Counted from the stretch's first letter, positions 27,260-30,200 are shown. The stretch: DNA of 64,000 nt from Verrucomicrobiota bacterium (GCA_039818205.1 JBCBUK010000010.1:64001-128000); one strand, 5' to 3'. A program made the numbers.

Positions 27260-30200
27260 TAGTTATTTGATCGTCGGCTGAAGTCGACAATTTGTAGTGA
27301 GCAAGTTTCACCACGGTCTCATCAAGGCCGTGGTGTTTACTTTTATGATTTCGGAAAACTGCGGGTCAGTATTCTAGCTGAACCCACCGGTTCTTCTGCC
27401 GAAAGACTCTTGTCAGACTGTTTCCTAGTTACCTATTAAACAACTTTTTAGCTGAACTCGGGAGAATACTATGAAACAGCTGTCAAAGATCCATGAATCG
27501 GGATGAATGACTAGCATGAGATGAAACAACGGGGTATATAGGTGTCAGATAACTGGCATACATCGAACCATGAGACAACGTTCGCTCATCTTATTCACGA
27601 CCACACTATTAGTCCTTGCTGTAATTAGCTTGCGCGTGGAGTGGTCGGCGTTTGATGCCCAGCTTGTACCCAAAGAAAACAACGAACCCAAGACTCAACA
27701 TGATCATACGCCCCCGTCTGAAGAAGTTTCCGATAACATTTCGCCCGAGCTCGTTCTGCCCGAGTCCAGTGCGCGCGAGCAGCTGGCAGCCGACTCCTCG
27801 GATCAGTTGCGAACCATTGACCCCACGGACCCCTCCTTGCCCAAGGAACTAAGGGAAGCGCTCGCTCGAATGAATTGGTCCCATGAGGGCTTGGAGCTGG
27901 TCGAACATTCCGATGGTCGGCTTTCCGTGGATACCTCTCAGCACTTTCAGCACATGGCAGTTATCAAGACAAATGCCAGAGGCGAAACGATTGTCGTTTG
28001 TGCGGCTCATCCCGGCGAAGTGCTTGCCGGGCCCTATTCATCCGTACATTCGGAAGACTACGCCGAACGGTAGTTAAGGTGAGTCGCAGCGAAGTTACTC
28101 GAGTTTGTTTATCGCGCCAATCATCTCATGAAGGTTACCACACTCTCAGTCCTTTGCCTGTTCGGGAGCCTGCTGGCTTCGTATTCCGTTCGGGCTGCAG
28201 ACTTTGTTTTTGTTAATCAGGATGCCGCTGGTGTTGGTCTTAATGACACGACTCCAGTTTCTCCGGTTGGCGGTAACCCAGGCACAACCCTGGGGCAACA
28301 ACGGCTCTTTGCACTTGAAGAGGTTGGTCGAATTTGGGGACAGTTTTTGCAGAGCGATGTACCGATTCGGGTCGGTGTGCGCTTTGGTGATCTTGGTAGT
28401 GGAGGAGCCTTAGCGCAAGCGGGGCCAGATAGCTTTGAGGTTAACTTCACAGGCGCTCCAGAGCGTGATGTCTTTTACCCGATTGCGTTGGCGAACAGTC
28501 TCGCGGGTTTCGACTTAGAGCCGACGCGTAATGACTTGTCCACGACGATCAATATCAACCTCGACAGCACGGTGCCTCGTCGTTGGTACTATGGCTTCGA
28601 TGGTCAGCCTTCTGGTTCCCAGGTCGACTTTATCGATGTCGTGTTGCATGAAGTAGGGCATGGTCTGGGATTTTCCGCTGTCACTAGCTTTACTTCTGGC
28701 AATTTCCTTTTTGGCCGACCGGCCGTCTACGCAACCTTTCTGGAGGACCTGACACTGGGGCTTCGTTGGACCGAGATGACGAGTGCTCAACGTCTGGCTT
28801 CAGTGAACAATGATCCGAATGTGGTTTGGAATGGACCCAGTACCATTGCCGGTGCGCCGAGTATCCTGCAGGCTGGCAATATTAGCTTTGAAGCTACGAG
28901 CCCTGCGTCATTCGCTCGCAGCTTCAGTTTTGCTGAGGCTGGTTTTGGTCCAGCGATCACGGGGAATCCGATCACGGCGGAGATCGTCGAAATCATTGAT
29001 GGCGCCGAGCCAACCAATGATGCCTGCAGCGACATTTTGAACGGCTTCGAACTAGCCGGTAAGATCGCTTTCCTATCACGGGGCACCTGTAATTTTGATG
29101 ACAAAATATTTCGTGCACAGCAAGCCGGCGCGATCGCTGTGGTCGTTGGCAACAATGTAGGTGGGGCTCCGATTGTCATGGGCGGCGATTCGGTGGTAAA
29201 TGGCCAGCCAGTCACCATCTCGATTCCGAGCATCATGATTTCGCAAACGGATGCCAGTGCGATTCGAGCACAGCTCGATGCCGCGACAACCGTGATTGTC
29301 CGTCTCGGAGCTAGCGGCGAACTGTTTGGTGCAAACCAAGGGAAGGTCCGGGTTCATGCGCCTTCAAGTACCGCTTCCGGTTCGTCCATCTCGCATTGGA
29401 GTACGGCAACGTTCCCCAACCTGCTCATGGAGCCTTCGATCAATCGGAACTTACGCGATGACCTTGATCTCTCCCTGACCGCCTTGCGGGACATGGGTTG
29501 GGTAGTCCTTGATATCCCATACCCACACCTGACCCTTGAGCTGTGGCAGGAGGAAAATTTTCCTTCGGCAGGTAGTAGTGCCCTCGCAAATGCTGATCCT
29601 GATTTTGACGGGCTGACCAACCTTGAGGAATATGCCTTCGGCGAGAATCCTAATTCTTCCACCTCTAATGCGTTCCCGGTCTTCCAAAGTATGGGTGACA
29701 CGCAGTCCATCGCCTACAGCCGTAGCGTTACGGCCACGGACATCAACTACTCGTACGAATATAGCACAGACCTTACGAACTGGCTTCCTGCCGAGGTTGG
29801 TGTGGACATCGGTGCTGAGGTCACAACGCCGCTCGGGAGCGAAGCGGAGCGAGTTTCCGTTGAAATTATTCGGAATGATCCTCGGGTGTTCCTGCGTCTG
29901 CGGCTAGAGCAGGTGATGTGAGCTCGGGATCGTGCTGTAGACCGAGTCGATTTCGTTTGCCTGATCATCGCTGGGAAGTCGCCGCTTTCGATAAATCAGC
30001 ATCTGTTTCTTGATTTTCGCCGTTAGCTGAATTCAAGAGAGACTATGACATTGCAATTTTTAGGCCGTTGGTTTCTTGGGTTTGGCGCATTTTTGATCGT
30101 GTGTGGAGTTCTTGGATTTCTATCGAACCCAGAGAAAGCGAAGACTGCCTTGATGAGCGGTGGCACCTTCGGCCTGCTCTCAATTGGGTGGGGATTTTGG

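Follow-up and report, generated by a model that had tools for sequence, protein, structure and literature searches.

The peptidase encoded at 28128..29921 of the window, i.e., the whole 64,000-nucleotide stretch of Verrucomicrobiota DNA that was analysed, ends in a module which belongs to a real, mostly terminal and lineage-restricted domain family, occurring in 64–77 of 151 sampled Verrucomicrobiota genomes. We propose that this module is probably an outer-membrane export and surface-display tag (probability about 0.62), the causal role of the domain itself being what we infer here. Evidence comes from the family within the source genome, from its fold and range, from the exchange of the module with an unrelated sorting tail on one shared passenger, and from an Akkermansia sulfatase whose location has been published.

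The window peptidase and the module family of its genome

The source genome is probably Opitutales/Puniceicoccales-like, judging from the names of the nearest peptidase homologues. The features of the window are as follows.

27570..28073 (+), small upstream gene, 167 aa, post-PEP-CTERM-1-like below cut-off (E 0.0014)
28128..29921 (+), secreted HExxH zinc-peptidase-like protein with PA domain and C-terminal module, 597 aa
28128..28196 (+), signal-peptide-like N-terminus, aa 1–23, judged by eye from the sequence
28647..28661 (+), HEVGH zinc-binding motif, aa 174–178; NF038122 matches here below cut-off
28974..29264 (+), PA domain PF02225, aa 283–379, E 1.2e-17
29532..29672 (+), N-terminal part of the module, a Trp-bearing helix plus the D-x-D-x-D-G..N..E..G..P calcium-type loop; weak TSP3_bac and Amuc_1099_fam matches
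29595–29651 (+), calcium-type loop of this module
29673..29918 (+), six-stranded FN3/Ig-like sandwich of the module with the Y.vE.S.DL..W motif
29889–29906 (+), terminal F-x-R-x-[VL] strand of the sandwich
49559–49640, tRNA (Rfam)
53437–53535, bacterial small SRP RNA (Rfam)
58367..63637 (+), second module gene, 1,756 aa, with Big_5, PKD, cytochrome c peroxidase-like and PA14 domains
63245–63622 (+), module of the 1,756-aa gene
63816..64000 (+), third module gene, 1,416 aa, start only, continuing past the window

In the peptidase, the whole module spans approximately aa 469–597. Homologues of the 167-aa gene 5′ of the peptidase occur, across phyla, in 72 of the 80 peptidase loci; this gene thus accompanies the peptidase rather than the module, and it possibly encodes a separate propeptide or chaperone. 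The Rfam scan of the window returned no RNA beyond the SRP RNA and the one tRNA. At 12456–20215, a 500-aa gene overlaps a 2,086-aa NTPase/WD40-type gene, the two resembling by eye a TIR-plus-STAND pair.

When the last 135 aa of the window peptidase were used as a jackhmmer query against the 21,192 ORFs of the genome, 69 ORFs were matched at iE ≤ 1e-3, and in 56 of them no more than 12 aa separate the match, as judged by envelope, from the stop. Adding a broader profile gave 73 ORFs, in 58 of which this distance is at most 12 aa and in 13 of which it exceeds 25 aa, while at iE < 0.05 the module ends within 14 aa of the stop in 60/71; reversed-ORF decoys gave no module matches. The preliminary description of this DNA had 62 proteins ending in the module, a number of the same order as, and slightly above, those obtained here. 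The motifs it listed recur in the alignment of the 69 members, namely W, D-x-D-x-D-G..N..E..G..P, Y.vE.S.DL..W and F-x-R, the last strand retaining F in 62/69 and R in 55/69 members.

The proteins that carry the module are otherwise unrelated: among 46 of the 69 that were scanned at full length, Pfam recognised sulfatases, trypsins, a lyase, cytochrome c peroxidases, a cyclophilin and Ig-rich adhesins. Two further properties noted previously were reproduced, i.e., signal-like N-termini (54/69 module genes positive in a crude signal-peptide test vs. 1,129/3,995 other genes) and the separation from PEP-CTERM, as none of the 69 is among the 76 PEP-CTERM-like proteins of the genome. No transmembrane segment follows residue 70 in 61/69 of them, and the module is always present as a single copy per protein here.

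Some copies are not terminal; several directly follow the signal peptide, and four lie on DUF1800-like proteins, one of them confirmed by Pfam. A module at or near the N-terminus was observed on five DUF1800-like proteins (C3:404582-406894, C2:419427-421964, C1:554808-557678, C15:5440-8280 and C3:389080-394116), of which one call was confirmed by Pfam and the others were judged from their C-termini; in four of the five, a second calcium loop lies right after the module.

Carriage among large signal-bearing proteins is partial, 30/112 having the module and 82/112 lacking it. At least eight large secreted module-less proteins, one encoded at 32281–35703 of the window and several elsewhere, end in a near-identical CBM96-like domain. 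Small genes that combine YD repeats with the module (C15:35101-35673, C16:64687-65445 and C2:127688-128467) adjoin three large module-less RHS genes and could encode export adaptors for RHS proteins; a search for partners that combine YD repeats with a T9SS tail yielded only 4 close proteins.

Fold, catalogued relatives and range of the module

In Pfam and NCBIfam scans of 62 members, only the calcium loop is matched repeatedly: at E ≤ 0.1, TSP3_bac (PF18884) matches in 8/62, with a best E of 5e-8, and Amuc_1099_fam (NF042425) in 16/62. None of the 62 is matched by PF18962 or by an NCBIfam model of the T9SS CTD, and none scores over the cut-off on FN3 (PF00041). The claim that the module is uncatalogued thus holds for the sandwich, which has no Pfam or NCBIfam family, but not for the calcium loop, which appears to be related to Pfam TSP3_bac. 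The loop had also been taken as a constituent of the module; it is present in this genome but often missing outside it, the strict motif being found in 20/48 loci of relatives and 32/89 strong library matches. The calcium loop is therefore optional and the sandwich is the core of the module; from its motif, the acidic loop would be expected to bind calcium.

The AlphaFold2 model of the module (pLDDT 93.9) contains two short helices and six strands, the strand pattern being that of a six-stranded Ig-like sandwich; the T9SS CTD fold is Ig-like with seven strands (3+4). The best structural matches of the module are FN3 domains of the beta-common cytokine receptor, with Z 7.3–7.8, rmsd ~3 Å and 76–79 aligned residues; matches at Z < 8 are generic, and, as far as the model goes, those of the module fall within the range of common Ig/FN3 folds. 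Among the matches listed in three fold searches there is no T9SS CTD entry, a PDB sequence search with the module profile gave only calmodulin-type and other weak matches (E ≥ 0.014), and an ESM Atlas search gave unnamed clusters with Verrucomicrobiota as the commonest phylum.

Against FN3 repeats, hhalign returns a probability of 65–85%, which is inflated and indicates register rather than significance, since the repeats compared had been picked by the module profile. In one such comparison the module covers FN3 positions 8–73 of 96, and the chain ends at strand F. The beta-common receptor domain may likewise lack a G strand of its own, with a strand swap. A sandwich that stops at FN3 strand F would leave the F-x-R strand as an open edge, which could, speculatively, be completed by a strand from a partner.

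Across the phylum, the beta-only profile from this genome matches in 68/151 genomes and the broader profile in 77/151; in 13 of the 77 the best E exceeds 1e-6, and these 13 are doubtful because weak matches include F5/8-type-like domains (e.g., L087 and L155). Among 51 re-read loci of relatives, which are the best matches per genome, 48 match at ≥20 bits and 47 of the 48 end within 15 aa of the stop; in strong library matches the module is terminal in 84/89. Of 80 named genomes 50 were searched, and three Verrucomicrobiota among them have 13–23 module matches each, while one Chthoniobacterales genome has none. A restriction to Verrucomicrobiota, as stated in the preliminary description, is borne out by the 46 genomes sampled from outside the phylum, a set that excludes Planctomycetota, Chlamydiota and Omnitrophota: three of the 46 have a single weak internal match each, and none has a terminal family.

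A library search gave 16,815 matches at E ≤ 1e-3, a figure that was rejected as the family size, as 61 of the top 150 score below 30 bits per domain. Four repeat-rich matches that were checked are fn3 arrays, and of ten matches that were looked up, the two with organism names are both Verrucomicrobiota. Many library matches carry tandem copies, 2–5 per protein, in a ranking that favours such proteins.

Tail exchange, an Akkermansia sulfatase and candidate machinery

The passenger of the window peptidase (aa 24–460) was used as a query, and its 120 best homologues were compared by their tails. The module terminates 51 of them, and PF13860 and/or PF18962 is present in 63; no homologue has both kinds of tail, and six have neither. 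Both tails start at the same point after the last conserved motif of the passenger, the module tails being 135–143 aa long and the FlgD/T9SS-type tails having a median of 105 aa (60 of 63). The module and the T9SS-type tail thus replace each other on a shared passenger. In the 80 named peptidase loci, the module is found on five Verrucomicrobiota and on none of the 73 loci not labelled Verrucomicrobiota; the remaining Verrucomicrobiota loci are a truncated one from Roseibacillus and one from Chthoniobacterales with a different tail. Inspected by eye, the peptidase tails of Krumholzibacteria and Eisenbacteria are of the FlgD/T9SS type, and many Betaproteobacteria have none.

The peptidase also carries further lineage-specific short tails (L164, L170 and L119-type; P0093, P0098 and P0119), for example the motif IF.DGFE.G and basic endings of the GRR kind in Acidobacteriota-like records, and these tails are possible sorting tags of other kinds.

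The module as a T9SS CTD proper was considered and rejected. Comparison with the T9SS-type tail by hhalign gives 0.6%, i.e., no profile similarity. SprA scores over the cut-off in 2/3 T9SS-tail control genomes and was not found in any of six Verrucomicrobiota genomes searched (this genome, the Akkermansia-like G087 and four module-rich genomes), PorV was found in none of five Verrucomicrobiota genomes searched, and PF18962 has no match in this genome or in G087 vs. 23–110 in three control genomes. The earlier reading of T9SS-like sorting consequently survives as a functional likeness, for which the tail exchange and a surface-located protein whose orthologues carry the module both speak, and is dropped as regards the T9SS profile and, within the machinery, SprA and PorV.

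That surface-located protein is the Akkermansia sulfatase Amuc0953. In a published analysis of transposon mutants, extracellular 3S-Gal desulfation was traced to Amuc0953 and intracellular desulfation to Amuc0451 (PMC13524802; bioRxiv 10.1101/2025.09.11.675649). There, the last domain of Amuc0953 is called T9SS-CTD-like on the basis of an AF3 model, and a comparable system is suggested (PMC13524802; bioRxiv 10.1101/2025.09.11.675649). The accessible text further states that Amuc0953 has an SPI signal and that no activity was found in the medium; given the SPI signal, the authors reasoned that the enzyme has to be moved to the surface by some mechanism not yet known (PMC13524802).

G087 and G063 each encode an Amuc0953-like protein of 1,420 aa in which the module lies right at the stop (E 1e-19 and 8e-18), after a beta-helix, a sulfatase, a PA14-like and a BACON-like domain. 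The G087 protein aligns with PDB 9s8x over aa 25–1284 (2,465 bits), and the PDB chain stops just before the module; the PDB titles the chains only "Sulfatase", and we take 9s8x to be Amuc0953 and 9s8a to be Amuc0451. Judged from these orthologues rather than from the type-strain C-terminus, the last domain of Amuc0953 is very likely this module. A 719-aa protein of G078 that by eye resembles 9s8a, i.e., is Amuc0451-like, ends without it. The published contrast is one pair, which differs also in the N-terminal beta-helix and the BACON-like domain of Amuc0953. The module can thus no longer be called undescribed without qualification, as its copy on Amuc0953 had already been likened to a T9SS CTD; for the family as such, no description was found in the literature searched, to which subscription papers mostly do not belong.

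The Akkermansia-like genomes G063, G078 and G087 (L071–L084, L252–L254) carry the module on GH18-like, sialidase-like, Amuc0953-like sulfatase and beta-helix proteins, many of which have BACON-like repeats just before it. The module proteins of these genomes are predicted to be surface cargo.

As for a machine, secretin, ATPase and platform genes are present in the source genome, where five genes contain a secretin domain and the T2SSE ATPase family is matched 13 times. Proximity of module genes to secretin genes had been reported and recurs in our analysis, three of the five secretin genes having a module gene within three genes downstream (background 5%, P ~ 0.001). One of these loci, the five-gene C3:75407-82583, is homologous to Amuc_1098-1102, with the models for Amuc_1098, 1100 and 1101 matching below cut-off, and is followed by a module gene after 59 bp. 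In at least 6 of the 31 genomes read, in one of which the contig ends early, the gene immediately after the Amuc_1098-like secretin carries the module (G000, the source genome, G141, G126, G066, G138 and G054); all six are of one order and five of one family. In G081 the module gene lies three genes beyond the secretin. The Amuc_1098-like secretin itself occurs in 134/151 genomes, comprising 75/77 module-positive and 59/74 module-negative ones, so co-occurrence discriminates poorly. Amuc_1099-like proteins of many lineages share the calcium loop of the module, but that of the source genome is without it, and the module has no profile similarity to the Amuc_1099-like or Amuc_1102-like proteins of this order. 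The type II secretion-like cluster at C6:19837-32216 is complete; a TIGR02597-like gene and a PEP-CTERM gene precede it, and the stretch read contains no module gene.

Another terminal domain, likewise uncatalogued, is ~130 aa long, mostly comes as tandem pairs and has the motif N-[LI]-S-T-R ... L-V-E-V-Y; it was observed with 10–27+ matches per genome in 5/151 genomes, four of them module-negative. Its loci are as follows.

L120, L122, L124, L126, L128, L130, L208, L258 and L260, NLSTR-type domain, in G048, G045, G060, G024, G108 and a Chthoniobacterales record

Two pieces of this domain were scanned without a Pfam match, its model is a PPC-like jelly-roll (Z 10.7, rmsd 3.0, 99 aligned), and it has no profile similarity to the module. 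In one genome it sits on the same peptidase, and in one genome, G060, it occupies the slot after the same Amuc_1098-like secretin. As a substitute in module-negative genomes in general it was rejected, as it accounts for only 4/74; in two of those four genomes, no Amuc_1098-like protein matches at 1e-40. That an unrelated PPC-like domain takes the same slot means that position alone does not fix function, and that recurrence at the C-terminus does not by itself make a domain a signal.

Readings of the function and comparison with known systems

If the module is an export and display tag, the cargo would cross the inner membrane via Sec on its N-terminal signal, as the sequences suggest, and would fold in the periplasm, where the acidic loop may bind calcium. 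The six-stranded sandwich would then be recognised by a Verrucomicrobiota export machine other than the T9SS, and the cargo would reach the surface for display and, in some cases at least, remain there, as published for Amuc0953, where a role of the domain is presumed. The likeliest reader would be a secretin machine, with the Amuc_1098-1102/MUL2 locus as first candidate. That this particular machine reads the module is a possibility at which the gene order hints, and it is the most probable among the three kinds of reader; an unknown translocon appears unlikely, and another secretin system slightly more so.

A stronger version, which we put forward tentatively and regard as rather doubtful, is a dedicated Verrucomicrobiota secretion pathway of the T2/T4-pilus class, convergent with the T9SS, in which the phylum-wide Amuc_1098-1102 secretin machine would read a portable FN3-like tag missing its last strand and would itself supply a strand to complete it, while Opitutaceae-like and Chthoniobacterales lineages would use the second, unrelated tag in the same slot. 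If true, this pathway would bring enzymes that degrade mucin and algal polysaccharides to the cell surface in Akkermansia and marine relatives.

The main rival, rather unlikely in our view, is that the module is a non-covalent surface anchor which, like SLH or dockerin modules, would depend on calcium to bind a polymer, pilus or scaffold at the surface, and that the export route, e.g., a general type II system, does not read it. The absence of Amuc0953 activity from the medium is explained equally well by an anchor; the enzyme remains cell-bound, and tandem copies, common among library matches, suit a binding module. Copies in N-terminal and internal positions, the betaproteobacterial passenger homologues without any tail, and the five secretin-domain genes and 13 T2SSE-family matches of this genome also fit an export route that ignores the module. 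However, on the same passenger the module takes the place of the FlgD/T9SS CTD, in many families its short core reaches to a few residues from the stop, and a non-exhaustive search found no cohesin-like or scaffold partner.

The third reading, a lineage-expanded FN3-derived accessory domain for substrate binding, spacing or calcium-dependent stabilisation, without a sorting role, would suit the cross-matches of the profile to true fn3 repeats (hhalign 65–85%), the generic Ig/FN3 structural matches (Z ≤ 7.8) and the PPC-like nature of the other domain in the slot, but is improbable given cargo with unrelated substrates (peptidases, sulfatases, lyase, cytochrome c peroxidases, cyclophilin, adhesins), a module nearly always last and single in this genome and never together with PEP-CTERM (0/76) or a T9SS-type tail (0/120), and no terminal family in 46 outside genomes.

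The family ties one Akkermansia domain to 64–77/151 genomes and makes a published open question testable; the module profile predicts the cargo of each genome, and both a candidate machine and residues to mutate can be named. As an export tag, the module would give the phylum a secretion signal and render the surface enzymes of a gut symbiont and of marine polysaccharide degraders predictable from sequence; as an anchor, it would be a large uncatalogued surface-display module.

Comparison with known systems starts from the published remark on Amuc0953, which, in its available portion, concerns one protein and its Akkermansia homologues and gives no family, phylum range, motif or machine. The available text on the Amuc_1098-1102 locus describes a pilus/attachment system absent from Methylacidiphilales (PMC13174399), and that on the outer membrane names Amuc_1098 as its most abundant protein (PMC4960237). 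As the MUL2 locus, Amuc_1098-1102 has been published, as far as these sources extend, as a pilus/attachment system and not as an exporter of tagged cargo, whereas the homologous locus here is followed by a module gene.

PEP-CTERM/exosortase signals resemble the module in tagging the C-termini of numerous unrelated exported proteins of the same genomes; PEP-CTERM and sortase signals, however, consist of a short motif, a transmembrane helix and a basic tail, whereas the module has neither helix nor basic tail. TSP3_bac (PF18884) and Amuc_1099_fam (NF042425) share the D-x-D-x-D-G..N..E..G..P loop with the module, but the likeness covers the loop only, which is absent from many members. With FN3 (PF00041), the strand B–C motifs align and, in one comparison, the last module strand aligns to strand F; FN3 has seven strands, A–G, whereas the module chain stops before strand G.

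The closest functional parallel is the T9SS type A CTD (PF18962)/FlgD_ig (PF13860), which, like the module, is a small terminal beta-sandwich on unrelated Sec cargo. T9SS CTDs are cleaved by a PorU-type sortase, and the cargo becomes attached to a surface glycolipid. The T9SS CTD has seven strands, according to the accessible part of the source (PMC11285876), whereas the module is predicted to have six, bears a calcium loop and is N-terminal in some copies; on one passenger, the two are interchangeable.
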